Positions 7,866-47,785 are shown, counted from the first letter of the whole stretch. The stretch: DNA of 63,613 bases, filler included, from Sphacelaria rigidula (GCA_964200075.2; 8 parts of 8 records of this genome joined end to end with filler, not necessarily neighbours in it); one strand, 5' to 3'. A program made the numbers and translations. Notes: generated from the letters alone by a model not told the origin.

Positions 7866-7965
7866 NNNNNNNNNNNNNNNNNNNNNNNNNNNNNNNNNNN
7901 NNNNNNNNNTTAATTAATTAANNNNNNNNNNNNNNNNNNNNNNNNNNNNNNNNNNNNNNNNNNNN
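7866..7965. other. Artificial contig linker
   Basis: N44-TTAATTAATTAA-N44, with stops in all six frames. Confidence 0.99.
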
Positions 7966-15829: not shown

Positions 15830-15929
15830 NNNNNNNNNNNNNNNNNNNNNNNNNNNNNNNNNNNNNNNNNNNNTTAATTAATTAANNNNNNNNNNNNNNN
15901 NNNNNNNNNNNNNNNNNNNNNNNNNNNNN
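15830..15929. other. Artificial contig linker
   Basis: N44-TTAATTAATTAA-N44. Confidence 0.99.
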
Positions 15930-17669: not shown

Positions 17670-20600
17670 GTCAGTTCCTCGTCAGCTTGGTTATCTTGGC
17701 TAGAGGTGTGCTTCTTGAACCACCCAAAACACAACACAACAAACGCGTCAAGTACCGGCAACAGGAACAAACGCATATATGTACAGACTGGACAGTCCTT
17801 GGCCAAAATAACTTGAAAAAAGCAACACATTTTGGGGAACGGAATCTGGTCTATCTTCATCCGTTCGCGCGCTGTGTTGACTGTTGTTTCAGCGCCCAAC
17901 CCCAGATACAGACACACGAGCTTATGGACTCTAGTTTACATGAAACGTGACCGAAGGCATCTCCGCAGGGGATAACTGGATGACTCTTGTACAGATTCTC
18001 ATTATACCAGTACAGATCTATGCTTGCTATTAATAGCTCTGCCTCCTCTCAGGTGCTCATGATGTAGAAGCGATTGCACCACCACCGTGTCCAGCCATGT
18101 ATTCAATCCACGGGTGCACGAATTCTGGGCTGCGAGATAGCCGTTTTGAGGGCGTATCGACGGTATTTCCCAAAATCGGTATTGGCCTTAATTAATATTC
18201 TCGCAGGCCGATAGGAGCCGCCGACCGGTGTACATACCACGCTGTCTTTGTTGTGCCCGACTAGTGCACCAAGTTTGACGTGGTGGCTTCAGCCGCGGTC
18301 GAGAAATTTTCTTCACATTTCACAAGTAAAATTGTTGTAAAAGAACCCGAGGAGGCACAAGTCAACCATCGAAATATACATCAGCTGCGATTACGCCGCG
18401 TACCCCACCTACCCAAAGATGTCGGCGTAACCTCTGCACCTCTGAAGCAGCATGGCAGAGATGGGGACAAGCGCCCAAGCGTATATCACAGCGCTGCGCT
18501 TCAGGGTTCTGTACATTGCCCCCCCCATGCCTTATGCTTCAAAATGTGTCGACAGCTTAGTTCGTTGCAGTCAGAGGTATGCCGCAGATGCTATATGGCG
18601 CGCGAGTGTCACTGTGTCACTGCCTTCATGCCGTCGATCTTGTCGGTACAGGACCCATACATGGAGATGATTTTATAGTTAATTAAATTATTTGCGCGAA
18701 GCGCGATTATGGCCGAGCGTTCAAGATCGGCCCCCGGCAAACACTAAGGACCCTTTTAACTTCAGCCGAAGAACTAATCGTAAAGCACCGGGACATGTCC
18801 CGTTTCATTGCACTGCAGCACAAACACACTCGCGTCCGCTCTCGTGTGTTGTAGCTATCACTGTTCTGTGGTGTGTTCAGACCTTGCAAAGAAGTTCTGG
18901 TCTCCGCTGAGATTGCCTGAGCTGCTGTAATGTTGTGTTCGTTTCTCTGCAAAATATTGTAGTGTCAGTCGGGACGCAGTGCGGCCTATACACACTTGAC
19001 TGTCGAATACTTCATGTTACCCGGACCTATCACTTGCGCGATACCGAACATCGCTGGGTAAAGACACACAACCAGCACCGGTATACACCGCTCGATCGGC
19101 TGGGTCAGACCCCGTGCTCCGATGAAAGGAGCAACTCACTGCACAGTACAGATATACTGCACCGCTAGGGTACTGCTTCCACTCGTCAGCATGGCGGCTG
19201 CTGCCGCTGGCATCGGCGACAGCACTCGCGGCCACGGAAAGACACAACCAGCCATACGATGGAGATATACCGATACACGAGCATGGTAATGACCGACTGC
19301 GGCGGCAATGTACCACTCGCTGTCTGCTTGTCTTCTTGCAGCTTCGTTTCTCTGCTGCTGTTCTATCCGTCCCGGCGCTACTGTTCACTCCTGCACTGTA
19401 ATACGTATACTACAGGTGTGACTCGAGTCTGCGAGCCAATCACGAGCATTTTTCACTGCATGATTAACTACGAGGGTCGCATTTTATTGGTGCTAGATTC
19501 CGCCGATTCCTCACGGAAAGGCCTCTGATTGATTGAATTTTTGTCCCCATGTGTGGACGTTGTACCATCTTGGGCTAACTACCCCGAGCTAGAAAAATTA
19601 TAGAAAACAAATCGTACCCAGAAACATTTCACACAGACAGGACAGTGTAGAAACATCCTGTCTGTGAAGTACAGTAGAGTACAGTACATACCGACACATT
19701 TCAGTACACAACAGTACGCCGCTCTGGACGGGGCACGGCAGTGTACACTATATTTCAATACCCGGCAGTACAGCATAGTGCACAGTACAGCATGCCACGC
19801 AACATCACATGGTGGTAACGGTATCTTGTGTATTTTCATGTCATCGTACGCCCGACTGTACCATGCGCGAGATTGTACTATACAAAAAACTACACGAGAG
19901 TACAGAGGAGTTCAGTAGAGTACCTAGGACCGAAGCTTGTAAGAGCACGGCGGCAGGCGCAGTGCGCCAAGTTGATGGGGGTTTTAGTGGGAGATACCCC
20001 TACACTGCCTTGAGCAAAGCTTGTGAAGGCTCGAGGCCTACTCCACGTGACTGCCGCGAGGCAGTCTGGCCGAGCCTCCGGATAATTGGCACACGGACCT
20101 GCTTGCGGGGACAGTGTTGGGTCAGGTTGACTCCTTCCGTCAAGGAAAAAAAAAAAAAACAGCACCCAACAATACACCGCTCTGGACCGTGCACGGCAGT
20201 TTACACTACAAGTAGGTACCGGAGATAACAACAGCATACAACAGCAGCTGGCAGTAAACAGTGTGTCTTGCGTTGTCATCCCATTGCGCGCCGCACTGCA
20301 CTGTGAGCGACGGTATACAGGCAGAACTGTACAGTAGAGTACAGTCATATAACAGCGCAGGGAGTACAATACATTACATACTTCAAAATTTGAAAAAATT
20401 GTGCGGTTTTTCAGGTTTGAAGACAGCCCGAATTGGCTACCAGGCATGCATGCACACAATCGTGTCGTGATATTTGCCCTCAAAAGCGAATGGCATGTTT
20501 TTTTTCCCACGTGGACTCCATGCTTTATGGGCTAGCCCGTACGTATCCTTTCAGTCCGGTGCTTCCACCTTGGCCGCCACCTATCGGCGTTGGATTGTGC

Positions 20601-22155
20601 ACACAGTGCACCAGTGGAGAGCAACACTATGCAAACTACCTCTACTTGTATCCGATACACCTATTATTGTTGCATGCTCAAGAGGCTGCCCATCTTCGAT
20701 CGTTGTCATTGTCCATTCATGTCCGTCTTTTCTCCACAGTACGTAACGTGTAAGCGGGACAGTATGCCCCACCGCTGTCAGTCCCTTACACGCATCACTT
20801 CTGCTTTTTACCAAGACCCGTCCAACTCCTATGCAAGAAACGTTTCACTCGTCCCGCGAGCCCCCACCAAGTAAAAAGCTGGTGGCCCAACACCCACAGT
20901 ACTGGGCAAGGTGGAGTGAGCCTGCTGATCGTGGGGGCACCTCATACATATACATGCTACAGTAGACATGCGCAGAGGCAACCAAAGAGGGAAGGAAGGT
21001 TGACGAGGAAGCAGTCATTTCAAAGCTGCATATTGATTCGATCAATTGGTTGTCGCACATTTTAACTAATCCCCGAAGGATGCAACCGCGATCATAACAT
21101 GAACGTCCGTACCTAAGGTGAACACAACGGAAATGTGTGCTGCAAAGAAACAAGAGGTGGACAACAAAACGAACCAAAAAAATAGAATCGACAGAAGGAG
21201 TAAAGCGAGGAGCAAAAAAAACCTCATGCAGGGGAAAAAAAAAAGGAAATGGATGCATAGAAGAACCGAAAACAACTGAAAGTGTAATGAACTTGGAAAT
21301 GAATCTTGAAATGGCCGGCCTGTGCAGCATGGTGTCACGTGAACAAGAAATACAGGCTGTGCCCGTAAAGCACATGCACCCGTGAACAAGAGCAAAACAA
21401 AAGGGTCGTGGGAGTAGATCGCGACTCGGCTATTTCGCACTATGCTGTTTGGGCATGAGCCCTGACTCACTCACGAGCCCCACCGAAGCAAGGTACCAAG
21501 TTGCCACTATATCAACATCAAGAGTCCAGAAATAGCGAGAGAGAGGGAAGGAGGGGGGGAGGGAAAGGAGACAGAAACGAAGAAAACTAAGGAAACGACG
21601 AAATTCAAGAACACAGTTGAGTACAACCGGGGAAGACCGCGAGAGCACACGCCGAGGCAAAAGTCAAGGACAAACAAGAGAGCACGGCGGTGGATCAGCT
21701 CCCGTGTTAACCTAGGTGGAAGCACATGTGGTATTCACCAATTCTCACATTTCCAAAACATAGGGTGACTGCACTTCCTCGCCAAATTCGTGAGCTAATT
21801 GATAGGACTGCACTTCCCACGAGTTTGTAGAAACAAGAGGGGACACACATGATTTACGGCCATCGAAAGGGGGTGTCGCATCTTGAGAGAGTGACACAAC
21901 TTTCTCCTCCCCGCCACACTGCAATTAAAACGTTGAGCTTGTCCAAAACATGTTTTTTCTCGCGTTGGGCGTGGCACCAAATTCCGAAGAGGGCTTTGAA
22001 AGGTGGAACTCTAGGGTTATTGCGCAGTTTTTGAGATTTGCGAGTTGCTACGGACACTCTGACCGCCCTACCAACCCCCCCCGCCCCCCGCCGACCCGTC
22101 CTACCCCTCCTTCCTCGTCAACCCCTCGTTTCCAATCCAGCTGCCTAGCTATATT

Positions 22156-23793
22156 ATGGCCCACCCCAGACTTCTCTGCAGATACCAACACTGGCGACGC
22201 GAAAAATCTATTCGCATCGCGCGAGCCGTTAGCGACGACAGCGACTCTGATGTGGGCACAGTCCCATCAGAAGCAGACCCGAGTTCCCCCACTCGACCGC
22301 AGCACGACCGCCAGCCACAGCCAGAACATGGTGAATCTTCCCTTCCGGTGGGTGCAACAGCTTCTGCTGCGTCGCCGCCGCAGTCGGCTTCTACGAAGTC
22401 GCCCGTGTCCCACCGCAATCGAAACAGTTCTTCCCCCACGCCCTCACCGCCTCGACCGGCAAGCAAAGCGCCTCGAAGCAAGCAGCCCGGTGTGCTGAGC
22501 GTGCACGAGCTCGCGAGCTCACCCGCCGCCGCAGCTGCTACCGAAACTAGCGAAGTGCTCCCCTTCGCGGCCACGGGTGTGACGACGAACGCTGCCCCGG
22601 AATTCACAGGGGGGCGCTCGGCGGTGGCCGCATATGTTGCCGGCTTTGCATCAGCCGAAACTATTCCGTCGACTAGTGGTACGGCGTCAACGGCGACTCC
22701 TGCCGCCACCGCTGATATGGATGTAGATCTCAACGCCGAGAATAATCCGGAGGTGCAGCAACCCAGCACAATACAGGAGAATCCTGCGGCCGCCGGTGCA
22801 GGACTGGCACCCCCCCCCGGCGAAGCGTCGATAAGTCCCCCGACAGCGACGATGGACATAGATGACGACTTAAACACCAAGAGCGTTTGGGGGGAACGGA
22901 TCAAAGACGGCTCTATAAATCCCGCGTCTTCAACTGACATGGATCAACGAGCAGCTGAAGTGGTGTCCCCAGGTGAAACAAGTGGAGATATCGTTGCCAG
23001 CGACAACTCGGGGCTACTCTCTCGGGGAAAACGGCGGCAACACGAATTATCGACGATTTCCTCGACCGTCTCAGACACGGATCCCGATCACGAAAATCCG
23101 AAGCGGCGGTGGCGGTTCGGCGGAGAAGATCCCGTTGACGTCGCACCCACCGCCGATTCAGCTCGTGAGGCGGACCCTGTCCCCGACCACGAGAGTTCGG
23201 GGCAGCGGGGTGCCGCCCACGTCGTAGAAGCCTCGCCGCCCGCGTGTCGTACGCGCAGCCGATTCTCCCCGAGGCCGTCTTTACCACTTGACGCCATCGA
23301 CGCGTTGAGGTGGAGGGCGGGCATAGACACAGGGCGGGAGGATGAGGAAGGAGAAGCCACGAGTAATGCTGGTAGCAGTAGCCATAGCAGTGCCAGTCGC
23401 GTATCATCTGGGGTCTCTAGTGTCGGTGAAGCAAGTGTTGCAGACGGTGAGACGGGACACAGCGATCGTAATGGTGGACCGAGGACAGCAAAAATGACGT
23501 CGAGATCCGCGACACAGCGGCGACGCGGCGCGTCCGATACGAGAGGGAGAACCCCGAGCAGGAAGGCGGCGGGCAGCAGGCGCGCGGGAGAGTCTAGTGA
23601 GGTGGCAGCGAGGACCCCGAACAGGAAGGCGGCGGGCAGCAGGCGCGCGGAAGATGCTGGTGAGGTGGCAGCGAGGACCCCGAACAGGAAGGCGGCGGGC
23701 AGCAGGCGCGCGGGAGAGTCTAGTGAGGTGGCAGCGAGGACCCCGAACAGGAAGGCGGCGGGCAGCAGGCGCGCGGAAGAGGCTGGAGAGGTG
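22156..23793 (+). CDS. Long intronless low-complexity (S/A/P/R-rich) ORF, open to contig end, with 21-aa C-terminal repeats
   Basis: 546 codons without a stop in GC-rich DNA; no recognisable domain. Confidence 0.5.
23548..23793 (+). repeat. 63-bp minisatellite with alternating variants (126-bp higher-order unit)
   Basis: Units start at 23548, 23611, 23674 and 23737 and encode RTP(S/N)RKAAGSRRA-GESSEVAA / -E(D/E)AGEVAA alternately; truncated by the contig end. Confidence 0.95.
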
Positions 23794-23893
23794 NNNNNNN
23801 NNNNNNNNNNNNNNNNNNNNNNNNNNNNNNNNNNNNNTTAATTAATTAANNNNNNNNNNNNNNNNNNNNNNNNNNNNNNNNNNNNNNNNNNNN
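23794..23893. other. Artificial contig linker
   Basis: N44-TTAATTAATTAA-N44. Confidence 0.99.
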
Positions 23894-24157
23894 TCAACAC
23901 AGGAGCTTTTTTCTTTTCTATTCGTTTTTAGTACCCCACCTTCCTTCTGCGGCGCTTACCTTTATTTTTTATCGCGAGAGGGGTTCAGCAGTCCATTTCC
24001 CTCATCGACCGATAAGTCGAACTTTGTGTACCCACGACACAGTCGCTCTCCATTGTTGGGCATGAGAAAAAACTCGAAGATCACTCCGAGATTTGAACCC
24101 ACGACCCAACCGTAGGAAGGTTTCGTGGTTACCAACTGAGCCACCGGGGCGACCGGC
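23894..24157 (-). mobile_element. tRNA-derived SINE, 5' part with Pol III A and B boxes
   Basis: A box TGGCTCAGTTGG (24143-24132) and B box GGTTCAAATC (24099-24090); body matches 59659-59799 and partly 25122-25190. Confidence 0.85.
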
Positions 24158-24166
24158 GTTGAATAA

Positions 24167-24644
24167 CTAAACTCAATATATCACGAGGCACTGAATGCCC
24201 CAAATAACAGCCAATATCAAGAGCGGCCTCTCGAGCATGGAGTTGAAATATATATATATGAGGACCAACCCAAAAGCCGTGCTTTCCCTGACCTAAATTC
24301 ATGACAAATTACTTTCATACGGGCGATCTCATCCCTCCCGACCTCCCTGAAACTATGTCGGGGGATTCCTGGCCTTCCGTTCCCCCGAAGGGTATGTGCG
24401 AAAGCACACTCGTGCCTCCATATCGGGGTGAAAACAGGACGTTTATGGCCCAAACGTCGTGCTTTCGCACATACCCTGTGAGGAAACGAAAGGCCAAAAT
24501 TCCCCCGACATGGTGTCAGGGAGGTCGGGAGGGATGGAATCGTCCGTATGGAAGTAATTTGTCATGAATTTAGGTCAGGGAAAACACGGTTTTCGGGTTG
24601 AACCTCATCTTTTTGTTTCAACCCTCATTTTCGAGAATCCACTG
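24167..24644. repeat. Hairpin module B (24229-24636) with leader; first copy of a ~480-bp direct duplication
   Basis: Arms TCTCGAGCATGGAGTTGAAA..CCCTGACCTAAATTCATGACAAATTAC.. / ..GTAATTTGTCATGAATTTAGGTCAGGG..TTTCAACCCTCATTTTCGAGA; repeated at 25285-25776. Confidence 0.9.
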
Positions 24645-25087
24645 CTCAGTCATCGATATTGAGGATGGGGCTTTTCATTGAGGATGAGAACCCGGAGGAT
24701 TCAAGTATCCGCGCCCACACCAAACCTTCGAAACATTGCTCCATTCTTTCATCTACTGGTAGCTATTGACAACTGCTACACGCCCTAAAAAATTAGATTT
24801 CGATAACGGAAATGTTGGGATCCTAGAAGATGGAGAAAAAATTCGAGGAATTTCGGTGATCCGATCGGATCGCCGAAATTCCTCGAAATTGGTTCTTCAC
24901 GTGGGACTCCGACATTTCGGTCATCGAAACCAAAATTTGTACGACGTGAAGGACTTGTCAATAGCTACCAGTAGGTGAAAGATTGAGGCAATGTTTCAAA
25001 CATTTGGTGTGGATAGAAAGATTGTATTCCCCCGGGTTCTCATCCTCAATGAAAAGCTCCATCCTCAATTTCGATGATTGAACCGTG
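24640..25087. repeat. Hairpin module A' (diverged relative of foldback family A)
   Basis: Palindrome centred on GAGGAATTTCGGTGATCCGATCGGATCGCCGAAATTCCTC (~24864); shares TAGCTATTGACAACTGCTACACGCC with family A. Confidence 0.88.
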
Positions 25088-25121
25088 GATTCTCGAACAT
25101 GGGCTTGAAAAAATGATGAGC

Positions 25122-25283
25122 GCTGAACCCCTCTCACCATGAAAAATAAACGTGGGGTATGGAAAACAAACGAAAAAGACGAAACTCCTGTGCTGACTGA
25201 CCTTCCTCCTGTGTGACCCCGGCTAGTGCGCCCACACATCCCAAAAGGCGTAGTCCGGCGTCCAGAATAGATGAGGCGATAAT
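25122..25283 (+). mobile_element. SINE 3' fragment
   Basis: GCTGAACCCCTCTC..TGACCTTCCTCCTGTGTGACCCCGGCT..GCGCCCACA..CCAGAATA matches the reverse complement of 59578-59752. Confidence 0.75.
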
Positions 25284-25284
25284 C

Positions 25285-25776
25285 CTAAACTCAATATATC
25301 ACGAGGCACTGAATGCACCAAATAACAGCCAATATCAAGAGTGGCTTCTCGAGCATGGAGTTGAAATATATATATATATATATATATATATGAGGTCCAA
25401 CCCAAAAGCCGTGCTTTCCCTGACCTAAATTCAAGACAAATGACTTTCATACGGGCGATCTCATCCCTCCCGACCTCCCTGAAACTATGTCGGGGGATTC
25501 CTGGCCTTCTGTTCCCCCGAAGGGCATGTGCGAAAGCACACTCGTGCCTCGATATCGGGGTGAAAACAGGACGTTTATGGCCCAAACGTCGTGCTTTCAC
25601 ACATACCCTGTGGGGGAATGAAAGGTTAGAAATCTCCTGACATGGTTTCAGGGAGGTCGGGAGGGATAAGATCGTCCGTATGGAAGTAATTTGTCATGAA
25701 TTTAGGTCAAGGAAAGCACGGTTTTCGGGTTGAACCTCACCTTTTTGTTTCAACCCTCATTTTCGAGAATCCACTG
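25285..25776. repeat. Second copy of leader + hairpin module B
   Basis: Near-identical to 24167-24644 with a longer (TA)n tract. Confidence 0.92.
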
Positions 25777-26242
25777 TGAACAACGTTTCCGTGAGATTGA
25801 GGGTAGAGGATACGATTGAGAATGAAAAGCGGTCATGTTTTAGTGTTGAGTGGGATGCACCCTCTTGGTGCCGCCAATCGGGCCAGAGGTCAGATACGTC
25901 CAAGGCCAACGCTGGCAGTTCTGTCCTCACATGGGATCGGGCTACAGACGTGTCCAAATAAGCCAACACCACAATAACTTCACGCAGTAAGCTATACCCA
26001 CTTGATACAAAAGACTCTTGTTCATTCGTATTCGTTATCTCTCCTTTCAATGCTCTCTCAGCTGCTCTCTGGCTATAGCAATCGTCCAACAGTCAGCTCC
26101 ACCCAAGCGAGTACCGCAAGAGGGCTGAAGGACCCATGCCTGCACCTTTTTATCAGTCTCACATCCGGACTAGTCAAGCTCAATCAGACCCGCAACTGTA
26201 GAATCCCAGGTTTGATCATAGACGTCTCCTAGCTTCATGACA
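25775..26242 (-). mobile_element. Putative 3' LTR of the Gypsy element
   Basis: Minus-strand purine tract AGATAGGCGAG, then TGTCATG at 26242. The end is either CATGACC (25831) or TTCACA (25775, where the duplicated repeat is cut off). Confidence 0.35.
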
Positions 26243-27039
26243 CTCGCCTATCTAGAGGAACCTCTATTACAGTTGCGATGAGAAATCTCGAAAAGCAACG
26301 AAAATCGAGGTTTTTTCCCACGTCAAGTCATGAGCAACAAGGAAGGCGAGGCCAATGCTATAAAATCACTCAGCCGTATTGGCTGAGAAAAGAAGGTACA
26401 GCCCAGACGACGAGGGCAACTTCCACTCCGTTGCCCGATCCCCCCACACCTCAAACAAGGTAAGCGAAATCTGCTACCGAAAAGCGCAAGTGCGCTTGGA
26501 GACGCAGGAGCACACAATGCTGCTGCGGGCTAGCGAACAAAACAGACGAACACAAAATGCTTCGACGTGCTAGCCAAAATAAAGAGGCAAAAGGGAAAAC
26601 ACACGAGGGGCACAACGTCTACGTGTACCAAAGTCAACCGCCGAAAAGTCAAGCACATCCGGCGAGCGCATGGTAGCCGAGGAAGCAAGGGATTAAGCAA
26701 CTCAAAGACTGCAAGGGGTCCAGTGCCAGTCGTATAAAATAAAAATAAAAGCGAGAATACGAAAAGCTCCAGTAGTGGAGGATGAAGGTGCTCCAAGTAA
26801 GTTCCATTCGTTGTCCGTGTGTGCGACGAAGGAGCTCCGGTTGTAGGCTGTGGAAGAAGGCGGTGGGTGGCACTGGTGTGTCCTGGATGATAGAAGCAGG
26901 GGAAAATATCTAAAAGGGGAAGAACAAAATAAAAGAGAAAGGAAAAAATGTCAGGATCGGAAAGCAGAAGGTCTGTGGGAGGTTAAAGCGGTGCATTAAC
27001 ATCATGTGTGCGATCGATATTATGTTGGATTCCGCGGCG

Positions 27040-30000
27040 GAGGCCTTTGGACTTGTGTCGCTGAAGACATCAAGATCCTCGTGGTGCGGATGGATTGGTG
27101 GTATAGAGCTCTGGGCGGAGCTTGAGCTGCACGGGTCCGGGGTCATCGATGAAGCGCACGATATATGTGTCAGGCGCGATGGGGTCTGTCGAGTAGGTCT
27201 GGCCTAGCCACCAGAGGTTGTCGCTGCCTTTGTACCAGAGGTAGGCGCCTTTGGGGAGGATTTCCTGTTTTGCGCGGATCTTTTCTTTCCAATGCTGGGT
27301 GGCTACCAAGTCATAGCCATCGGCGACAAAGTGCAAACCTTTGTCACGGTGAAGTTCGTGTGCTGCTGTGCCGCGGCGCATGTTGCGATATTTCTTGTTG
27401 TTAGCAAGATGTTGCTGCTGAGGTTGTGTCCAGTACAGGAGAATAGCTCGGCGATGGAGCTGAAGGTCAGATTCGCGTTTCCAAGACGCTCTCCGAAGGC
27501 CTTGCCAGTGAGTATTGTACATGACAGCAATCTTACCGCCTCGACCGCGGGTGATCTGGTGACCAGAAATTCGGGACACGGCGAGACGAAGGGGTTTTTC
27601 CGTCACATCGTCGGTAGTAACGTGATAAGGCGGTGATTTGGTCGAATAGCTGTTAAGTACGTACTGCGTAAGACCGGCAGGGAGATATTTGGGCATGTCT
27701 CTGGTGTCATGCGGATTGATGCAAGGTTTACAATGGTGCACAGAGACGCGAATTTCGGCGTCATGTCCTTGAAGGTCGCGAGGAAGATCGAGATAAAGGA
27801 GTTTGTCACCAACAGGTTTGCCATCAGGTGATGATGGCGAGGGTCCTACGGTCAGAATCTTGAACGGTCCTGTCCAGTTGAGGGGTAGTTTAGTCTTCAA
27901 GACTGTCTCGTTAGCAGATCTGTCGGCGCCTTGGCGAATGGTTGACAAACTGTTGTAAACCCAGACCCAATCGCCATCTTCCAAGTAGATTATTTGTGCA
28001 TCAGGTTGTAGAGAGCATTACTAGATCTCTCACGCGCGAGGCGTTGATAGCGTGTTGTTCACGCACGAGAGTGAAAGCTTTGCGCTGGCGTGCACGCGCC
28101 AGGTCATGGTAGGATATCTGATCCTGATCCAAGCCTTGGTGGCCATCAAAGGTGTGTCTCTCAAACACTGTGATGGGCAGGCGGGGGTAGCGGCCGAGAT
28201 GTAACTCGTTCCGAGAAAGACCGGTAGCAGCGTTGACGGAGTTGTTATAAGACAGCATGACATGTGAGAGATGGAGATCCCAATCGTTTTGTCGATCGTT
28301 GACTACCATAGACAGCATCTGGGCCATGGTGTGGTTAACTCTTTCAGTACCACCGTTACCATTAGGGTGGTGAGCGCTTGTGGCTATCTTTCGAATGCCC
28401 AGGAGCGTATACAGTTCGTCCGAGAAATCGGAGCAAAATTTCATGACCATTGTCGGAGAGAAGCCGTTTCGGGCAACCATAGCCCGCTGCTGTGAAGTCT
28501 CCAGCGGTGACTGCGTACATGGCTGCGTGACGGCTGAAGCGGTCGGTAAAGAGTAAGGTGTAGGTGTTGCCACGGTCGGTGGGCGGTACAGTACCAAAAT
28601 AATCGAAAGACACGAGGTGACCAGGAGCGTTGGGAAGTGCCATCGAAATATCTGGCCAGCGTATAGTCTGTCGTGAAGTTTTGCGAGCTTGACACTTGAA
28701 GCAGCGCCGACTCCAGAAGCGGGTGGACACTTCCGTACCGATCCACCAGTAGAAACGTTCGAGTAACGCTAATGTGCGCGTGACACCAAGGTGGCACGAC
28801 AGGTCAGTGTGGAAGCCATTCATTACCCACGGTCGCATCAAAAATGGGACATATATCCGAGTGGGTTCATCGTCGAGTAGGCGTGCATGGCGTCCAGTGG
28901 GCGCGGGTGAAGTTACACCCTGCTGGGGCGTAGGACGGCGGACAAGCAATTCGATTCCGTCATCACTTGTGAAGATAGTACCTTTACGTGCGAGTTCGTA
29001 CACCTCAGCGGTGTTTGGTGGTTGCAGTGTGCCAATCGGGGCCAATACATTGGCCGGGATAGGAGCACGGCAGCCAGCACGGAGGTACCGCATGGTTGCG
29101 CGGCATAATGGTTCTGCTTGTTGTTCCCGAGCCCAATCACGATGGGAGTAAATGGCGAGGAATCCGCGCAGTTGGCCTTTCGCCGGAGAGCCGACCAGAC
29201 ATGGTGGCTCAGGAAGCGGTGGAACAGGCGACGGGGGGGAGATGTCAACGTCGATGTGAACATCGGAAGCATCAGAAGGGGTGGGCACTGACGGGACCGC
29301 GGCGGGCGGCGATGTCGCAATAGTGCACACCGGAAATTGCGGTCGGCGCTTGTTGTTAGAACTACGCGTGGCGGGGGTTGTCAAGGCTCGTGGTGCGGTG
29401 TTGCGGGGAGCCGGCGCTACGTTGCTCGCAGGAGCATTAGGTGTTGTCGGTGGCGGCGGGGCGCGGGGAGGGTTAGCGCGGGCGGCAGACCGAGAGCGCG
29501 TGTTGTCGAAAACGAGATGGACAACTGGAGGGGGCGAAACTACAATTTTGGCGCGAGGACCGATACTACGGAAATCGGCGAAATCGGCGTCGGTGGGTTG
29601 TAGCCCACTCAAGACTGCATTATACGGTAGGGGACGGGGGCCGCCCATGTGCATACCCGTCCCTGGGCAATGAAGGTCAAGGGCGTAGATGGGCGTTGAG
29701 AAACGCCGGATAGGATACACGCCGGGTTCATCGGGTTCAGTTAGTCGGCAAGCGGGGCTGAAATCCACAGCCGTTGGAGGGAGGGGCAACCGAGAGAGAA
29801 GGTCAACATTCTCGTTGGTTTTGGTTTCGTGAGAGACACAACACTTTACAAGTAAAGTACTGTAACCTTGAGGTAGCCGTACCTCTGATGCGCTCTGGCT
29901 GACCCGACTTGGGACGGATTCGATAGTAGTTTAAAAAGCTTTTCCCTCACAGTGTTACCAGGCAGCTGAAGCCTTTCTAAGCAAGTTCGTAATGGGGCGA

Positions 30001-31757
30001 ATCCGTTTGGACAGGTTAGGCAAAACAATTGCGATAGTAGGACAGTCCACCCAACAATGAGCGTAGCTGAGGATGTTCGTGGGCATCGGCAATCCAGTTA
30101 TTGCTCTGACTTTGTTGGTTTCGGGGTGTAGACCCGCCGGTGAAATTGAGTGTCCCAGAAAATCCAGCTCAGTCGCGCCAAGGCGAGCTTTGGATGGAGA
30201 CAGTTTCAAATCGTGCTTCCGCAGGCGAGAAATTAACTCTCGCAAGGTGCGCACATGCGCAAGAGGGGAGGCATCGAATGCGATAGCGTCGTCCAAGTAC
30301 ATGATGACGTGTTCGAGATTCTCTGTAACGCGTTGCATTAAGCGTTGAAAATAACCTGGTGCAGTGGCGGCACCTTGTGGCGTACGGAGCCATTCGTAGA
30401 GCCCAGAAGATGTACAGAACGCTGTCAGTGGGACTGTATCAGGGTGGATGACGTTCTGGAAAAATCCAGAAGCGAGGTCGAAGCTGCTGAATATTTTTCC
30501 TCCGCCGATAGAGTTGAAGACTTCATCTATGCGGGGAATGGGACGTTTTCCCACTACAGTAACGCGATTTAACCGTTGATAATTCACGGTGATGCGTATG
30601 TTTCCATCCTTTTTTTGGGACTACCACTAGCGGTGAAGCCCACGGAGAAGAGGAGTGTCGGATTAATCCGGCACCTAAGTACGCATCTAAAATGGCGTTA
30701 ACCAATCTGGTAAGGATGGAGTTCGTCCGATACGGTCGAGAAGAATTGGCGAAACGCCAGGTTGAAGGGTGATTTCAAAGGGCAGCGTTTTGCAATGCCC
30801 CAGATCCGTTTTGGATTAGAAAACCTGTCTTGGTACTCCAACAAAACATCGCTCACTTCTTTGATTACAGCGGGTTCCCAACCGGGTCCATATAGGTCAA
30901 AATTGATGTCACGTAAATGGGTTAGAAGTTGATCCCACATGTGCAAGGAACTTGTCCGAGATTTTGGTGATAGGCGTTGCAGCGCTTCAGCAGGAGGTAC
31001 GGACGTTGACGGTGCAGGGTCCACGGTGTGAATACGTGATGGAGACGAAGAGGTTACGTCGAAGTAAGGCTCATCGATGGAATTGACAGAGCCGTCTGTC
31101 GGCGACGCAGGGCTGGGCGTAGAGGGTTCAGTGACACATGTTTCAAGTGGAGTGTGTATGAGGGGAGCAGCAGCAATACCCAAAACATCTCCGGGTTCCA
31201 AGTTAGCGTGACCCGTGAGTGGCAAACGTTGTTTCCCCGCGGAGACGAAGCGTTCTGTGCCTGCAGGCGCACTAACCCGAGGAAGCATTTTAGCGAGGTA
31301 ATGTCTCGTAAGGGCAGGCATGCCATTTCGGCGAACTAAGGCAACTTCTAACAGTTGAGGATCATCGGAGAGGGTAACACCAGTACTACCATCGTATCGA
31401 AGGTGGTAAGTAGCTCCGGTAGCTTGTTCAATGTTTTGGTAGGCCAAGGCCCCGTGAAGAGTACCGAAATGTTCAAGGATGGGTTCTCCACGAGGCGCAG
31501 ACTGTGGCGATAATGCTGGTGGCGTGCGGTAGGTGCGTTGATCAAACCGCATGTAACTATCTCGGCCCATGAGTAAGGCGTGAGCCATGGTGCTGTCGGG
31601 GACGACATATGCCCAGACTGCAAGGCTGGCAGAACGAGTTGTGTTGTGAAAGAATTGCACACTGAGACGAACTGATATTCGTGTGGTCAAAGGTGCGGTG
31701 GAGTCACCAAAACCGCCCCATACTCGAGGTTTGGTGGTGATTTCGCAAGCTGCTGAA
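27040..31757 (-). mobile_element. Ty3/Gypsy pol pseudogene: protease C-terminus, RT, deleted RNase H, integrase, chromo-like and Tudor-like C-terminal domains
   Basis: LLMGRD; SSSPWASPLVVVPKK; NYQRLN; FDLASGFFQ; YLDD at 30299-30288; DFLGH; ENVDLLSRLP; HTDLSCH..CFKC; SFDYFG..FTDRFS..LSDNG..GTERVN; WTGPFKI. Several frameshifts and deletions. Confidence 0.95.
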
Positions 31758-31857
31758 NNNNNNNNNNNNNNNNNNNNNNNNNNNNNNNNNNNNNNNNNNN
31801 NTTAATTAATTAANNNNNNNNNNNNNNNNNNNNNNNNNNNNNNNNNNNNNNNNNNNN
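31758..31857. other. Artificial contig linker
   Basis: N44-TTAATTAATTAA-N44. Confidence 0.99.
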
Positions 31858-32530
31858 AATAGCGCCAATACTAAAATCTCTATGAAACTCCCGATCGATG
31901 CATTTAGCGGATGGCGACGAATTTTGGTGTGGAGAACCACAAAAGAGTGCCGAATAAAAAAAAATGGGCCTTCCATTTTTTTTTTCATAGAGGTTGGGGC
32001 GTTCTCGTGAAATATGGTCTTTACCATAGTAGAACGCCCTAAACCAGTGGGAAAAATTAAAAGAAATTAACCTGACCCACTTTCGTTTGTTAATTATGCC
32101 GTAGAGAGCGCCCACACAAGATTTCAAAACACAAACACCAAACGTGGGCCGGTAAATGGCCTGCAAAGTACTGTTCCGAATTTCTTCTGACCCTGTCACA
32201 AAACAGCCCATTATACGTCCAATACTTGGAGCTGGACCCTGAAATTTGGTATGGACAATGAGTAGGGCATAATAAAAAATATTACTGGCGTACACAAGGG
32301 ATTTTTTTTTCATGAGTTAAGGGCAATAATCAGTTTTCAGATATCGGTAAGATGATCCCCCTAACTCATGAAGAAACAAACATCCCTTGTGTACGCCAGT
32401 AATTTTTATTATTATGCCCTACTCATTGTCCATACCAAATTTCAGGGTCCAACTCCAAGTATTGGCCGTATAATGGGCCTGCAAACTGCAGAATCGCTTC
32501 TCGGCTGGCCAAGCTCGTAGAGGGACACGA
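31858..32530 (+). mobile_element. Family F body with internal hairpin (32206-32478, ~115-bp arms)
   Basis: Homology to 16300-16810; arms GGACCCTGAAATTTGGTATGGACAATGAGTAGGGCATAATAA / TTATTATGCCCTACTCATTGTCCATACCAAATTTCAGGGTCC. Confidence 0.8.
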
Positions 32531-34498
32531 AATGGCGAGACAACCACTACTATACGTACAGTAGTCCGCATGCAAACTGGGCGAATTTTAATTGGTTATT
32601 TCTTGGCGATTTATTGCGAGCCACCGCGCATGATAATGAACGTTTGATCTCAAAGTTTGGCGATCGGGAGATACTAGCATTCGCTTCACACTCCGAAAAA
32701 AATCATTTCTGCATTCGATACCGAAAGGCTTACCGGGTGACCGATTCTCGGGGGTCCTGCAACTACACAGCTCCAGGTTTTGACTACTCGGTATTTTTGC
32801 TCGATTGAACCAATCCCTGTCGTTCTCGTGTACGAATGAAGAGAATTTTCCGCCTGAAATTCGACCAATTCATCGCGCTAGAGCGGAAAAGCTCCGTTTT
32901 CTGGTTCAACGACGGTCAACAATACTTTTCTGATGACTGGTCTTTACTTCGTATTACCCCAACAAAACCAACTTGGGTATTGTGTCCTGAGCCGGACCTC
33001 TTCATTATCATCACTTTCGAGTGCTGAGGAAAAATAATTTTCGAGAAGACGAAAAAAACACTCACAGACAAAATTCGTCCACTTTGCATGCGAAATGCTA
33101 TATTACTGACACCCGTGACACGCGCCACATCAAGTCCATGGAAGGGGAAAATGACGAATAACATCACGTTCACTGGTTGAGTAAATAGCGGCGGACGTTG
33201 TGAGTGTGGAATTTTCTTCATCTGGGGCGGGGCTATGGCGTTAAAAGCAGGAGAAGGACATGGAACGCGAAGAGGGGCGGAACATCAATCACTTTCAACG
33301 GAAAATTGTATTTCCGCCTGCCGCGCCTTCTACTTCACTCCTGACAATAGTGCCTGGTGTCGAAGCTGCGGGAAATATCTATTATTTCGGTGGGACGGAT
33401 GATAACACGATGAACTGAGGCCGTGTTCTGATTAAAAAAAAAATCCGTTCGAAAACATGCGGTCGAATCGAATTGGTCGCTACGAGGCCGTATCGGATAC
33501 GCTCACGGCAATCATTTTCTCAAATGGATTCAAGTTTATTTTATAATTATTTGCGCACGACGAGTAGGTTCAAAAACAGAAAAGCTTAGCTTTTTCGAGC
33601 GAAACAAGCGGCGGAAATGAACGAAGGGTCACATGACTCCTAGGCAGACGACGACGCCAGATACCACCCTTTCACGGCACCGTGCAAAACCCACATGGTC
33701 CATTCGCAGTTACCAACTCAACGCTGCGGCATAGATTACGAGTTGAGCACAGGGATACATAAACTACAGTGAGAGGGAACTGACACCACAACCCTCTTGG
33801 CATTATGTGTTTTTTTTTGTTGGCGAAGACTTGGGCATCTCATTTTGTGGCAGGCTCCACTGATCGAGTTGCATGTTGAGGTGGGCGACCGAGTTGCGAA
33901 CAAGCTCATGGACAGCAGAGGGAGAGCAAAACTGCACTTGATTCAAATATTGTTCGCATCCTCCTGTATGCACAGTACAGGCAGCTCTGCTGTGTGTATT
34001 CTGTATGTCACGTTGCCCGCTTCTTTTCCACATCGCGCCTGCATGCTGTACGAAACAATATGCACAGGCAGCGTGTACCGTCTGTACTTTCTGTACTGCT
34101 GTCTGTATTGAATACAAGTAAACAAGTACCGCTTTACAAAGTTCGTTCAGCCTTTTCGATCCGAAGTATGCAAATCTGCTCTGACCCAAACACAGCAAAG
34201 CGAACTGAATCAATTCTGCCGCACGAACTCGTTCGAGTCGATTTTTTTTTCATGAGACACGGCCTGAACTGCAGTCTGATGTACAACCTGTCTGTCAAGG
34301 AATGTATTGAATACACGTCCTCGACGTGCCGCTCGAACTGTATTGAACTTCCCCCCAGCGTGAAAAACATCCCTCCACCGCCCGTGAGTAATCCAGTGGA
34401 ATTCTGTTCTTGAACCACCACTACGGTTTTTCAAAAACGATACACTCAAAGGATGGATATTGATGAAATTGCATTGCGGTGGTTTCATGCGAATATTT

Positions 34499-34671
34499 CA
34501 CACCCTGGACAATAAATGGTTAATAGTGGCAATAGACGAGAAGTTTACTGCATAAAGTATACTGTAGGCCTACTGCAACTATTGCCGGTCGACAATAGTC
34601 GCAATAGGCCTATACTTTATGCAGTACGTTTCTTGTCTATTGCATCTATTAACCATATTGTCCAAGGTGTG
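34499..34671. mobile_element. hAT MITE family D
   Basis: TIR CACACCCTGGACAATA / TATTGTCCAAGGTGTG; perfect 8-bp TSD GAATATTT (34491-34498, 34672-34679). Confidence 0.93.
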
Positions 34672-34929
34672 GAATATTTTAGTCATTTTCTGATAATTTC
34701 GCCGCGTTCCTTTTCGGTACATGGCTCACTATGACAATCGTTTAGGGGAGTCCCGATTAGTCCTGGTGGTATAAGTATACAATCCCCTGTGTAGTATTCT
34801 CAATGAGACTCGACAGTAACACAGCTTTACAACATTAACACGCGACATTTCACGAGATTCCTGGGAATCCCCGGTCTCTTTTGTACTGTACACTATCTCA
34901 TCAGCAGCACCCTCCGCACATACACGCAC

Positions 34930-35626
34930 CTTGTGAGTCTGGCTATGCCGATTTGCTCCCCTTCCGTGCCGGAGTCATACGAGCTTGACGATGAACAACG
35001 CCCATGCGCCTGGTGCCTATCCCCGACATATCTCTTTGAAGCTTGGCGAAAGTCATCACCACCATCAGGAGTAGAGTTTCTCTGACTGTCGTTTTCATCT
35101 TCCAGCCCCGCTGCCCCCGCCGCTGCCCCTCCACTTTCACGTTCGTTTGTAGCATACATTGACAAGCTGGCGTCGGTGCTGCCTTCACAGGTTAGTGCTG
35201 TCGTTGAGTCACGTGCTCTGGTGGGGGGCATGATGCTACTCCGGAACGCCATGATATCCGGGCTGCTGTCTCTGTCGGAGCATGATGATGTCGAGCCTGC
35301 CGAGGTCGGAGTTGTTGCGAACAACAAACCCGTGTTGTTGCTGTTGTCATTGTGGAGGTATTTAACCCGAGAACTCGTTCTACCTCGTTTCCTCGGGGGA
35401 GGCACTTCGGCGCTTCTTGGCATAGCGGTGATATTCAACGTATCGTCCCCAGTCTCTGTCGTCGGATTCATTGTCATTATTGGTTGACCAGTAGATGGTG
35501 TGGTCATAGTGCTAGTAGTGAGAAATGAAGTAGTATAGCATCCAGCTACTTTGATGGGTTCTTCTTCTGCTCCCGAAGAGTCACCAGGAGTGCTGCGGAG
35601 CTCCTGACGGTGTACGGTAGTCTTTA
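34930..35626 (-). CDS. Putative exon of a low-complexity S/T-rich protein with NLS-like PPPRKRGR
   Basis: Open frame within ORF 34893..35651; donor AAG|GTGCGT at 34930/34929; acceptor at 35626 (or 35603); phase-compatible with a candidate exon at 36145-36043. Confidence 0.5.
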
Positions 35627-36042
35627 CTTGTACAGGCATCAACCGCAACATTTATCGTGGGTCGTATTAGAAAATGACATTTCTTTCTAGAAACAGACAC
35701 GAATATATATGAGCCTAGGTCATTATCCATGAATTTGTTCACCTCAAGTCTACCACACCAGATACGCCAGATACACGTACACTCACAGGGTGTGTTGTTC
35801 TGCATTCAACTGTTGTAGTTTATCCTCGCTGTGTTTACTGTACGTCTACATATATGAAGGCTTCTAGGAGAAATCAAGACTATGGGGGAATAGGTGAGGT
35901 GATCATCACTGTAATTTACGATTTGTTGTCGCCATTTGATCTTACATGCTGTATTATGTCTTGCATGGTAGACACGGTACAACGTTCATCCCACGTGCTA
36001 AAATCGTCTTTTCGACAAAACAATGTAGAGCTCAGCGCTCAC

Positions 36043-36145
36043 CATAGTCCCCAACCCGATTCCCTACTGCACCGCATGTGTTTGGTGTTGCCAAAGTATT
36101 GCTTTGTTTCTTTGTGTTGTCTAAAAGCCTAACAGGTGAACCGTC
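36043..36145 (-). CDS. Candidate upstream exon of the same gene
   Basis: GTGCAG|GAC acceptor and TATG|GTGAGC donor; encodes DGSPVRLLDNTKKQSNTLATPNTCGAVGNRVGDY. Confidence 0.3.
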
Positions 36146-36262
36146 CTGCACAATGACCGAAAGATACAAGTGTCGTGACGGGACTGTCAACCGACGACAC
36201 TGACAGAAGGCCAAAAGTAAACCTTTGAAGAGCACTGGAGTCTGACGGGGATAACTTCATAG

Positions 36263-37137
36263 CAGTAACACCGTTTCTTGGACCGTCTTGGATGGCAACC
36301 AATCTATATTTGTACGAATATACGGATTTCAGCCCGTGTACATCCAATTTTCTCCCGTGGATTGATTTTTCGGACCCCCAGTCCGTTGGGCAATGTTTTT
36401 CGCCTACCTCTTAGGAAATCATATCAATTCTCCGATTCTCTGGACGCTGACTTTTGGTTCATCACCTTTCTGCTCAGATCGGGAGACTCCTGCATTTCCC
36501 CCGAATCTGGGGCCCAAATCGGGGGAGATGCGGGAGTCTCCCGATCTGAGGAGAAAGGTTATGAACCAAAAGTCAGCGTCCAGAGAATCGGAGAAATGAT
36601 CTGATTTCCTCAGAGCTAGGCGAAAAACATTGCCCAACGGACTGGTGGTCCGAAAAATCAATCCACGGGAGAAAATCGTACAAATACGGATTGGTTGCCA
36701 CAAAAAAATGGTCTTACGGTTGGTATTGTTGTGGGGCATATTTTCCGCTTCTGGTGCATTCGACACCGGTTTTGCCCCTAAAGCAAGGAATATCGTCATC
36801 AGATGTCTTTGACACTTGGCATTACCCCACCGAAAGGAGTCTAGCCCACTCGTCCGATTCGCTGGGCTCCGAGGTTTCAAAAATGGTCTCTGAACAAAAT
36901 ACGGCTGGACGAAAAAAATGCGGTGTTTTTTCAGACGCCATTCTGGAAGCCTCGGAGCCAAGTGAATCGGAAAAATGGGCTAGACTCTTCTCCGTGCGGT
37001 GATCCAACGCGTCCAGGACATGTGTTGGCGGTATTCTCTGGTTGAAGGGCAAAAGTCGTGTCGAATGTCCCAAGAGTGGAAGATACACCCCCACTAAATA
37101 CCAACCTTAAGATACGGTCGAACAGGACGGATCCCTG
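36263..37137. mobile_element. Double-hairpin element (modules 36293-36700 and 36712-37112) with degenerate CAG...CTG ends
   Basis: Hairpin 1 centred on ..CCCCCGAATCTGGGGCCCAAATCGGGGG..; hairpin 2 bounded by TCTTACGGTTGGTATT / AATACCAACCTTAAGA; outer GACCGT/ACGGTC inverted match. Confidence 0.8.
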
Positions 37138-37150
37138 TTGCGCAGTATTT

Positions 37151-37286
37151 CACACCCTGGACAATATAATGTATTGTAAAAAAATGTATTGTGTACAGTA
37201 TCGACTGTTGCGTTTATTCCAATAGACAATAGATTCCATACTGTAAGCATTGCACTTTTTGACGATGTGTTTTTCTCCAGGGTGTG
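37151..37286. mobile_element. hAT MITE family D
   Basis: CACACCCTGGA...TCCAGGGTGTG; TSD CAGTATTT/CGGTATTT (7/8). Confidence 0.9.
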
Positions 37287-37689
37287 CGGTATTTGCCACA
37301 GTGCATTCTCCATTCTCTACCCTTGCCCCCGCAGGTGGACCGAACGCGAACCACTGGGAATAATGAAGAACAAGAAACACGTAATTTCGGTGAACATCAT
37401 GACGTGAATCGAAGTTGGGTTATAGTGCCATGGAATAGAGGCGGGTGGATTATCCTGAGGGTTAGAAAATTATATTCCGTGCTATTCAGGTGTCGATTTC
37501 GACGAGTAGGAGCCATTGGGCTTTCGAGCTGGGGGTACGCCGCGTCTTATCGAGACGAAAAATTACATCCGCTGTGATTGACCGCGGCGACACAGTACCC
37601 TCCCCCATCAGTATCATTTGCGAACGTAATTTCTGGTGTCAGAAACATGATTTCTGGTGTCGGAAACGTGATCTCTGAGCGGCTGTCTC

Positions 37690-39340
37690 ACTGACAAAAA
37701 ATGCTGGCAAGAAAATGCTGCTAAACTGATTTTGCTCGTTGTCACTCGTTTTTGGTCCGGATAAATTTCGCAATGCGCTACAAGAAACTGAGATGGACAT
37801 TTTCGAACCACGGCAAATATCACCCCTCACCTCAGGGGTATTCAAATCTTGACAGCGAGTTTCACGGCGTGTGACACGAACCTTGATAACCCGGGTCTTA
37901 GCTCTCAGCCATATGGGGTGGTTGTATGCTTTGTTTTCAGTCGACCATGAACTGGAACAGTAGTGTTGTATACCGCACCACTAATCTGGTTGATGCAGCT
38001 TCGTCGAAATTTATCGACGAGCTGCAGGCGAGTAAAGGGGAGCGCAGCAAGCCGGGCAAGCTCACTGTGCTTGCAGGTGAAAAAATTACGACGTACGATG
38101 GCATGATGCTTGAAGAAGCGAAAATGATGCTTCAAACACCTGAAACCTCGACGGGATTATGGTTTGCTGTGGTGCCCGCGTTTGTTGTTTCACCGCGACC
38201 TCTGCCTCGACGTGGGCGTTCAAGACGATTATGGTGCAGAGGACTTGCGCCAGGCCAAGGTTGTCGCCCTCCACGGCCTTCACCGCTTCCTTGAACGGGT
38301 CAAGCATCCCCGCTATCATAACCGCGTTCCTCTAGTCATCCGACATGATCTCGAAAAACCAAAAACATTTCAGTACAGTATTCGGTTCGATCTACCACAC
38401 TTTGGATCAGCCTTGTCTGTTTTCGGACAAGAACTGGGTGAAACGGACGGTTTGGTGCGATATCAGAGCAGGAGACTTCCATGCATATTACTATTGCTCG
38501 CCCAATGTTACACAAACACTATCGAAGTTAATTGCCTCAAGCTGTGGTAGATTGGGTCTACCTTTGAAGGTGTCGCGCGTCTGACGTAATTGTCTTTGGA
38601 TGGCGGAACATGCCTTGAAATGTTGAGCACACGTTTCCAACGGTTGCGCATTCCAACTTTCTTCTAATTGGCAGGTGATTTTTTGCGCCGCATTTTCTAG
38701 CTAGCGAAAGTAAGAGTTTATATTTTTAGCCTAGTCCTTGCGCGCAAAGAAGTACGAAAAAAACCGACGAAGCCATCTAGGAGAAGAATTGACGTGGACC
38801 TATTATAGCGCGGGGGAGGTTGTCTCGCCGAAGTTTATCGCAGCCGTTTTTCCCTGTAATATAGCCTTTGAAATGTCTTTTGCGACTTTTCCCTCCTCGG
38901 AAAATATACTAGTGCAGCGTCATGGCTGTACTGCACTATGAACACCACCATCGCACGAACAGCATCATGCCACTTGAGCAAAAAAGTATATGTATAGCAC
39001 CTACATCACTTTCACTGATTGAGTAGGTAGCGGCTGGCGTGGTATTTCTGACATTTTGTTTCTGGGGCGAGGTCATCGCGGTAAAACAGGAGGGGGGCAT
39101 CACAGTCAACATTTAGGAAACATGCATTATTTTCAACGGATAGCTTTCGCGTGCCGCGCCTGCTGCTTCGCTCTTGCTGACAATTGCCGTTGCGTCGAAC
39201 ACCTGGTGGCAAGGCTCTAGGACGGGCCCATTCTTGCGGTGGGACGGGTTGTAGTGTTCTGTACTGTACCATAGTGATGTCGAACACATCAGTATCTGCT
39301 AGCCGTGCTATCGCGTTCCTATCCGGCACATGAAACATCG
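37690..39340 (-). pseudogene. hAT transposase relic
   Basis: In order across frames: NLPRAII..QFF..KYKL; CAQHFKACS..LRQ..LPQLE..VCVT/HWASNSNM (TRW.S-like); MLDPFKEAVKAVEGD; LPWFEN..RIAK / PKTSDNEQNQFSS (dimerisation-like). Confidence 0.6.
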
Positions 39341-39721
39341 TTCTAGATGATTTTTTCAGGCGGTTCTTGCTGTATGTCTGCGAGGTTGTCGATAAAACTC
39401 GAAGTGGTCGTTCGGGACTGAATCAGATCCATGCAGGTAACTCTTGGAACATGAATCGTCGGTCCCGATTAGACACGACGTTACCGGCGTCATTAAAGGT
39501 CAGCCCCTTAAACGCCCGATACTCTAGCTGGACCCCTAAGGGACAGTCTTTTAGGGAGATTCGGAACAGTTGTTTTCCGCGGAAAGACAACGCCTACGTA
39601 AAACAAACCGTCGCCGCGCGTGTGCCGTGCCTCATAGATATCTGTAGGTGAACAACGATCTGTAGCCAAAATACACCAAGGCGTAGTAGATGTAGCATGT
39701 GTAGGATCCTGGATGATGACC

Positions 39722-39821
39722 NNNNNNNNNNNNNNNNNNNNNNNNNNNNNNNNNNNNNNNNNNNNTTAATTAATTAANNNNNNNNNNNNNNNNNNNNNNN
39801 NNNNNNNNNNNNNNNNNNNNN
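39722..39821. other. Artificial contig linker
   Basis: N44-TTAATTAATTAA-N44. Confidence 0.99.
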
Positions 39822-39908
39822 CGGTTTTGTAGGGAAACGAGGTCAATGGTCTTATGACTATGGCATGCATGATCATGAGTGCACCCTCCCCCTATCGTAG
39901 CATGACTC
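39822..39908 (-). mobile_element. Sola2-like G-type element end (contig start)
   Basis: Reverse complement begins GAGTCATGCTACGATAGGGGG; homologous to 47577-47674 and 46434-46472. Confidence 0.75.
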
Positions 39909-44907: not shown

Positions 44908-44917
44908 NNNNNNNNNN
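44908..44917. other. Internal 10-N scaffold gap in a poly-A/poly-T region
   Basis: Directly visible. Confidence 0.95.
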
Positions 44918-47685: not shown

Positions 47686-47785
47686 NNNNNNNNNNNNNNN
47701 NNNNNNNNNNNNNNNNNNNNNNNNNNNNNTTAATTAATTAANNNNNNNNNNNNNNNNNNNNNNNNNNNNNNNNNNNNNNNNNNNN
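47686..47785. other. Artificial contig linker
   Basis: N44-TTAATTAATTAA-N44. Confidence 0.99.

Follow-up and report, generated by a model that had tools for sequence, protein, structure and literature searches.

A conserved Ty3/Gypsy integrase tail with predicted chromo-like and Tudor/SH3-like domains in the brown alga Sphacelaria rigidula

For the brown alga Ectocarpus, the consulted text of a recent study describes four Gypsy lineages, three of which have putative C-terminal chromodomains (PMC12477816, Genome Biol 2025). In one of these three, exemplified by Gypsy-12_Ec32, a NADAR domain is present at the N-terminus as well, and the fourth, Gypsy-10_Ec32, has a C-terminal Tudor domain and is called the first transposable element (TE) with a Tudor domain; the same text treats the chromodomain lineages as unrelated to chromoviruses and places the Ectocarpus lineages outside chromoviruses and Chronos (PMC12477816). 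Here, we describe a decayed Ty3/Gypsy element in a stretch of 63,613 nucleotides of Sphacelaria rigidula DNA (GCA_964200075.2), the whole of which is referred to as the window, and focus on the tail of its integrase, which is predicted to have a chromo-like domain and a Tudor/SH3-like barrel in tandem. A chromo-Tudor tandem on an integrase was not described in the literature searched, in which PMC12477816 alone was relevant, its Fig. 1C, Fig. S1B, and consensus FASTA not being covered. Because reader fusions on Gypsy integrases were already known, the gain is a modest one, consisting in the occurrence of both domains in one family, their being missed by standard domain models, and the incompleteness of their cages.

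The tail is encoded by a minus-strand stop-to-stop open reading frame (ORF) of 315 amino acids at 27070..28017, and the residue numbers given below refer to P0001, the 304-residue protein read from 27984 to 27073 on the minus strand. The parts of the tail were delimited by translation, by a family alignment (A2), and by AlphaFold2 (AF2) modeling, as follows.

27715..27975, minus strand: integrase C-terminal domain with the GPF motif (WTGPF), from translation; A2 consensus GGWVWVYN...LNWTGPFKIL...LLYLDLP...RVSV.RCKPC
27427..27594, minus strand: predicted chromo-like domain, residues 131-186, with three strands and a helix and an almost invariant RGRGG hairpin loop
27262..27426, minus strand: linker with two predicted helices, residues 187-241 (AF2 helices 78-95 and 110-120), with conserved R203, R209 position, R213, and Y224
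27112..27261, minus strand: predicted Tudor/SH3-like beta barrel, residues 242-291

The first of these is the domain that we take to be the GPY/F module, an SH3-like unit that Ty3/Gypsy integrases usually have. C-terminal to the catalytic core and this GPF/SH3-like domain, the family was shown to have a conserved extension of about 185-210 residues, made up of the chromo-like domain, the two helices, and the Tudor/SH3-like barrel. The original prediction for this locus, a Gypsy integrase with tandem chromo-like and Tudor-like reader domains, had relied on three strings, all of which were read exactly in the P0001 translation: WTGPF (residues 37-41), LAVSRISGHQ...ILLYW (residues 134-185; 27585-27430), and LPKGAYLWYKGSDNLWWLGQT...YIVRFIDDPG, which starts at residue 243 (27258). 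Its numbering of W250, W258/W259, Y274, and F278 was also right, and one correction concerns the end of the last string, which is at 27136 and not at 27103, a position 11 residues further on. The assignment to a Gypsy integrase was borne out as well, because the stretch is the 3' end of a Ty3/Gypsy (Metaviridae) pol gene, in which Pfam found RVT_1, Integrase_H2C2, and a partial rve in this order on the minus strand, with RT_RNaseH additionally in relatives, and the A2 family profile matched the Ty3 Gag-Pol structure 7q5b at E 2.3e-36 and the PFV integrase at 4e-19.

A phmmer search with P0001 against 1.84 billion representatives retrieved 975 proteins, for the most part fragments, at E<=0.001; of these, 510 reached <=1e-10 and 81 reached <=1e-30, and the number at E<=0.001 puts the tail far beyond a chance motif. 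A search for longer proteins gave 48 of the Pol type, 33 of which cover at least 94% of the 304-residue query and hence both domains, and a word-index search for near-length relatives gave 7 matches. The family was thus shown to be widespread in brown-algal genomes, its range resting on the four relatives named among the 48, namely two from Ectocarpus sp. CCAP 1310/34 and two Undaria gene models. The latter two, in which the tail is fused to either kinase/cNMP-binding or DUF2064 domains, most likely reflect the inclusion of a TE fragment in the gene model.

Conservation was evaluated in A2, which has 45 rows (the window, P0152, 26 of the 48 long proteins, and 17 phmmer fragments); the long proteins were picked by hand for tail coverage among those shorter than 950 residues, with ten tail-covering proteins of at least 1,026 residues omitted. 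In the chromo-like part, the most constant columns were W160 (39/40), W168 (41/41), E169 (40/41), L174 (42/42), Y184 (43/44), and W185 (43/44). Those of the barrel were G246 (42/44), W250 (38/44), W258 (42/43), W259 (37/43), F278 (36/43), and D280 (38/43), together with Y251 (33 Y and 7 F of 44) and Y274 (33 Y and 5 F of 43), at which Y and F are exchanged. The aromatic residues named in the original prediction are therefore kept in most of the alignment. The RGRGG loop at residues 146-150 (27535-27549, minus strand), in the beta1-beta2 hairpin of the chromo-like domain, was almost invariant (R146 in 38/38, G147 in 36/38, R148 in 28/38, G149 in 37/38, and G150 in 37/39); RG/RGG motifs are known as nucleic-acid contacts and as arginine-methylation sites. 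The mean pairwise identity was 0.67 for the integrase core, 0.62 for the GPF domain, 0.58 for the chromo-like domain, 0.40 for the linker, and 0.45 for the barrel. As shown by this conservation, the family keeps the tail under selection.

With respect to the Ectocarpus lineages, Gypsy-10_Ec32 is like the window's family in that both are brown-algal Gypsy elements whose Pol ends in a Tudor-type domain. Compared by description only, it is unlike the family in that it forms a lineage separate from those with chromodomains and that the consulted text does not mention a chromodomain for it (PMC12477816). A relation to the NADAR lineage is indicated by P0200 of Ectocarpus sp. CCAP 1310/34, in which NADAR (E 1.9e-40) is combined with a Tudor-like tail of the window's type (45% identity over 143 residues). 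Since P0200 has NADAR and the same barrel, the window's family is close to the NADAR lineage, for which the consulted text of PMC12477816 mentions a chromodomain only and no second barrel. In P0200, NADAR lies upstream of the reverse transcriptase (RT), and tail residues 74-161 are absent. Pfam found no NADAR in the window's part of the element, nor in P0167 or P0173.

For the fold, AF2 run on the single sequence gave a predicted local distance difference test (pLDDT) value of 32.1 and was unusable, and the model used is therefore the one based on A2, covering residues 120-304, with a mean pLDDT of 91.4, a predicted template modeling (pTM) score of 0.77, and no segment below 50. The secondary structure elements predicted by AF2 were as follows.

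Model residues 17-27, 33-41, and 48-51: strands
Model residues 52-67: helix
Model residues 78-95 and 110-120: helices
Model residues 129-133, 139-147, 154-159, and 165-169: strands

The first domain was thus modeled with chromodomain topology, that is, a three-stranded antiparallel sheet against a C-terminal helix, and the second as a four- to five-stranded SH3-like barrel of about 50-60 residues. Local Foldseek matches in the PDB included the PHF19 Tudor (prob 1.00, TMt 0.65, rmsd 1.8 over 45 columns), the PHF1 Tudor bound to H3K36me3 (prob 1.00), the Chp1 chromodomain (0.99), and the Swi6 chromodomain. Furthermore, the VIA structure comparison was run against 48,161 chains, and 42 of the 50 matches listed were labeled chromo, chromoshadow, Tudor, PWWP, MBT, or Spindlin, all of the Royal family; all 21 of those on model residues 1-105 were chromodomains or chromoshadow domains, and those on model residues 106-185 were mainly Tudor-type barrels. 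Seven of the 50 were non-Royal (UBE2O, two designed SH3 barrels, circularly permuted SH3, relaxosome chain, Hpy99I, KOW, BAH), and one was unlabeled. The tandem of chromo-like and Tudor/SH3-like folds in the original prediction is therefore in agreement with AF2 on A2, Foldseek, and VIA, and the models support the presence of two separate Royal-family-like folds behind the GPF domain, the chromo-like one first and the Tudor/SH3-like one second.

On this basis, we consider it probable that the locus encodes a Ty3/Gypsy integrase tail with chromo-like and Tudor/SH3-like domains that most likely tethers to chromatin by a non-canonical contact. Several results, brought together here, weigh against this reading. 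Foldseek with the two-domain model gave no match at E<=0.001 in the PDB, and none at E<=0.001 among the BFVD viral models, for which the 50 matches listed were uninformative. At the sequence level, a Pfam scan of five ORFs gave no family for the window's tail at E<=1, Pfam Chromo (PF00385) and all Tudor families were below the curated threshold for the tail, and a precomputed Pfam Chromo or Tudor match was present in none of the 48 long relatives. Judged from the alignments, the chromo cage is incomplete, with one of its three positions aromatic (W160), and so is the barrel cage, with two of four (W259 and F278). The matches to chromodomains and to chromoshadow domains were tied, so that the first domain could dock a peptide or dimerise instead of reading a mark. 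Finally, the targeting role is most likely but is drawn from an analogy with chromoviruses and with the Ectocarpus reader-integrase fusions; for the chromovirus chromodomains, the work of Gao et al. 2008 is said to be the targeting precedent.

The sequence-level support for the two domains was weak but consistent. When 45 members were scanned one by one with Pfam at E<=1, sub-threshold matches were obtained for Chromo in 11 (best 0.0036), for Agenet in 8 (best 0.02), and for an SH3 family in 3. The best profile matches in the PDB were, with A1, the PHF19 Tudor on the barrel (E 0.27) and the Swi6 (0.28) and MPP8 (0.6) chromodomains on the first domain and, with the A2 profile, the Swi6 chromodomain at E 0.017. 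A phmmer search of the tail against the PDB gave the srGAP2 SH3 only (E 0.44), and the language-model neighbors of the barrel were mostly Tudor families (0.83-0.86), which we take as a lead only. The claimed match of the first string to the chromodomain pattern is thus borne out only in the fold and in the core W..E..L residues, and not in the cage (L134 and L163) or by Pfam Chromo; likewise, the Tudor pattern claimed for the second string holds as an SH3-like barrel fold and is not recovered by the Pfam Tudor families.

The state of the cages bears directly on what the tail could recognize. The Swi6 alignment places the chromo cage at L134, W160, and L163, the first of which is a residue ahead of the aligned block that we take to be the corresponding position. 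The family columns read L22, I9, V2, and M2 of 38 at 134, W in 39/40 at 160, and L29, I8, F1, and V1 of 40 at 163, which leaves aromatics in at most 3 of 38 at the first position and in at most 1 of 40 (F) at the third. In the gapless alignment with PHF19, W259 and F278 stand at two of the four positions that we assume to form its cage, and the other two align with G/A/S and P in the family (G253, with S15, A11, G8, and D4 of 44, and P284, 36/40). The conserved W250, Y251, W258, and Y274, together with D280, could form a shifted pocket or be packed against the linker. The pattern of the chromo cage is the one that defines the group II chromovirus chromodomains, which lack the first and third cage aromatics but retain the central W and which had been found only in plants, according to the consulted part of the source (PMC3605345). 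The window's family is like these plant chromodomains (Tekay, Reina, and Galadriel) in having its chromodomain at the C-terminus of a Ty3/Gypsy integrase with only the central W of the cage; it is unlike them in being brown-algal and in having a Tudor-like barrel in addition, and the likeness is one of domain position and cage pattern. In Ectocarpus, the consulted text of PMC11541908 indicates that another Gypsy, ECR-1, retains all three cage aromatics, and the loss of the cage is thus specific to the window's family and not general to the host.

The original prediction had gone further and proposed a dual methyl-lysine reader, in which a canonical chromodomain cage and a 53BP1-like Tudor would be tuned to H4K20me3/H3K79me2. 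Its chromatin background is in agreement with the consulted part of PMC13076208, according to which H3K79me2 and H4K20me3 accompany repression across brown algae, which lack DNA methylation. We consider such a reader decidedly unlikely, however, in view of the incomplete cages and of the scores of readers of H3K36me3, H3K4me, H3K9me3, and methyl-arginine, which were alike within 1 Z unit. The analogy with 53BP1 also breaks down on architecture, because 53BP1 contains a pair of adjacent Tudor barrels, whereas the window's family has a single Tudor-like barrel, and no tandem Tudor, with a partner of chromo topology joined to it by two helices. As for the adaptation to H4K20me3/H3K79me2, it was purely inferential, and the sequence and the model point to no particular mark; reading of one known mark in the manner of HP1 or 53BP1 is not expected. 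The Tudors of PHF1/PHF19/MTF2, Spindlin, SETDB1, TDRD3, SMN, and RDM15 had no significant sequence similarity to the barrel.

A different possibility, which we regard as unlikely, is that the ligand of the tail is nucleic acid or the surface of the nucleosome and not a modified histone tail. The barrel would then be akin to the SH3-like, DNA-binding C-terminal domains of retroviral integrases or to PWWP, with RGRGG acting as an arginine anchor or an RGG-type contact and the basic linker taking part. However, the element already has a GPF-type C-terminal domain upstream, histone readers were the best-scoring and most numerous fold matches, and six conserved aromatics in a barrel of 50 residues would be unusual for a plain DNA-binding SH3. 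The tied matches also allow for a chromoshadow-like first domain that dimerises or recruits a host protein, with the barrel binding a methyl-arginine RG motif, possibly its own RGRGG, and thereby bridging integrase subunits. The SMN-type Tudor cage consists of four aromatics. This arrangement is very improbable in our estimation, since two aligned cage positions are non-aromatic and the idea is entirely speculative. The domain differs from the HP1 chromoshadow domain in position, as it sits at the end of the integrase.

The barrel might also have arisen by internal duplication of the GPF/SH3-like C-terminal domain of the integrase instead of by capture of a host reader. On visual comparison, G-x-aromatic strands, a W-x-G turn, and a hydrophobic-D-x-P stretch are present in each of the two. 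An hhalign comparison of the A2 sub-alignments, however, gave a probability of 0.4% over 10 columns, which was no better than the controls (0.16% for chromo versus barrel and 0.16% for linker versus barrel). This origin, hardly credible with hhalign at control level, was rejected.

Apart from the tail, the element could be traced as a decayed pol gene with the following features.

27001..31756, minus strand: decayed Ty3/Gypsy pol remnant, from the protease-side region to the pol end (tblastn of P0167 and P0164, ORF list, and spacers)
30144..30617, minus strand: RT domain (Pfam RVT_1, E 1.3e-24, residues 2-159 of ORF 29955..30620)
28677..28841, minus strand: integrase H2C2 zinc-binding domain (Pfam PF17921, E 5e-10, residues 364-418 of ORF 28362..29930)
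28500..28631, minus strand: initial portion of the catalytic core of the integrase (Pfam rve, partial, E 0.013)
27070-27072, minus strand: in-frame TGA ending the ORF early (translation PRGS*CLQRH..., where relatives with ...GSWCLQ.H... read on for about 28 codons)
26983..27069, minus strand: rest of the ancestral frame, to the TAA at 26983-26985 (translation; tblastn alignments reach 27013/27001)

By tblastn, full-length relatives aligned from 31756 to about 27001 on the minus strand over three reading frames, residues 90-1834 of P0167 matching the locus in seven pieces and P0164 in five. The rest of the integrase core lies in another frame, in ORF 28001..28768, with the frame change relative to P0167 near 28407-28444. 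Because the window copy shifts frame at least three times relative to full-length relatives and has the early TGA, it is a dead, inactive remnant; the conserved CLQ.H tail in 26983..27069 is possibly the last strand of the barrel. At 31757, the element is interrupted by an N-spacer, and its gag and 5' long terminal repeat (LTR) fall outside the segment. A repeat search over 20000-40000 found no LTR pair for the element, which is cut at 31757, and tblastn found no copy of it in the window besides this locus.

Two further regions of the element were observed. A proline/alanine/threonine-rich low-complexity stretch at about 29150-29550 (minus strand), in ORF 28362..29930, separates RNase H from the integrase zinc finger; it did not align with residues 924-1106 of P0167 and looks like a variable polyprotein spacer. 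At 30698-31756 (minus strand), about 350 residues upstream of RT match P0167 residues 90-416 at 42% identity, Pfam gave no family at E<=1 for this region, and P0167 itself had only a faint aspartyl-protease match at residues 61-93. The region is a conserved stretch between protease and RT.

The window consists of segments of 7,864 nucleotides joined every 7,964 nucleotides by identical 100-nucleotide spacers (N44, TTAATTAATTAA, N44), and segments that adjoin here are not necessarily neighbors in the genome. An additional run of N10 is present at 44908-44917.

7866-7965, 15830-15929, 23794-23893, 31758-31857, 39722-39821, 47686-47785, and 55650-55749: spacers

Other repeats were observed in the neighborhood. 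Two copies of a unit of about 430 nucleotides, at about 24167-24600 and 25285-25730, were 92% identical over 495 aligned columns and lay 1.12 kb apart. The inner part of the unit, about 330 nucleotides, combines long inverted ends with a variable (AT)n tract, by which it looks like a miniature inverted-repeat transposable element or a foldback-type element. The unit accounts for the mirror-image ORFs that the two strands show at 24217-24567 and 25223-25693. In addition, a tandem array with a period of 63 nucleotides at 23481-23793, made up of four overlapping copies of 124 nucleotides with 60-96% identity, reaches the spacer.

Returning to the tail as a chromatin tether, we propose that this module most likely holds the integration complex to chromatin and that such tethering would bias the landing sites of new copies, as chromodomains do for chromoviruses. 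Because both canonical cages are incomplete, the contact would be non-canonical, the candidate residues being W250, Y251, W258, Y274, the acidic D280, and the almost invariant RGRGG loop. A more specific version, which we consider quite unlikely, is that this is the first chromo-plus-Tudor tandem on a transposon integrase, a two-part reader without an HP1-type cage, in which the pair would recognize a lineage-specific chromatin state, for example, silent domains with H3K79me2/H4K20me3, or, via the RGRGG loop, the nucleosome surface. If this were the case, new copies would go to regions that are already silent and gene-poor.

Integrase-fused readers are among the few cases in which the choice of landing site by a transposon is tied to a small, testable protein module. 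For Ectocarpus, the consulted parts of the sources state that H3K9me2 and H3K27me3 are absent (PMC11541908; PMC7784034). With repeats silenced in brown algae without these marks and without DNA methylation (PMC11541908; PMC13076208), the question arises how the abundant Gypsy elements find safe sites. A two-domain tail with degenerate cages offers a handle on this question, because its ligand would name the feature that marks DNA as safe, and the tail module could serve as a probe for that chromatin feature.

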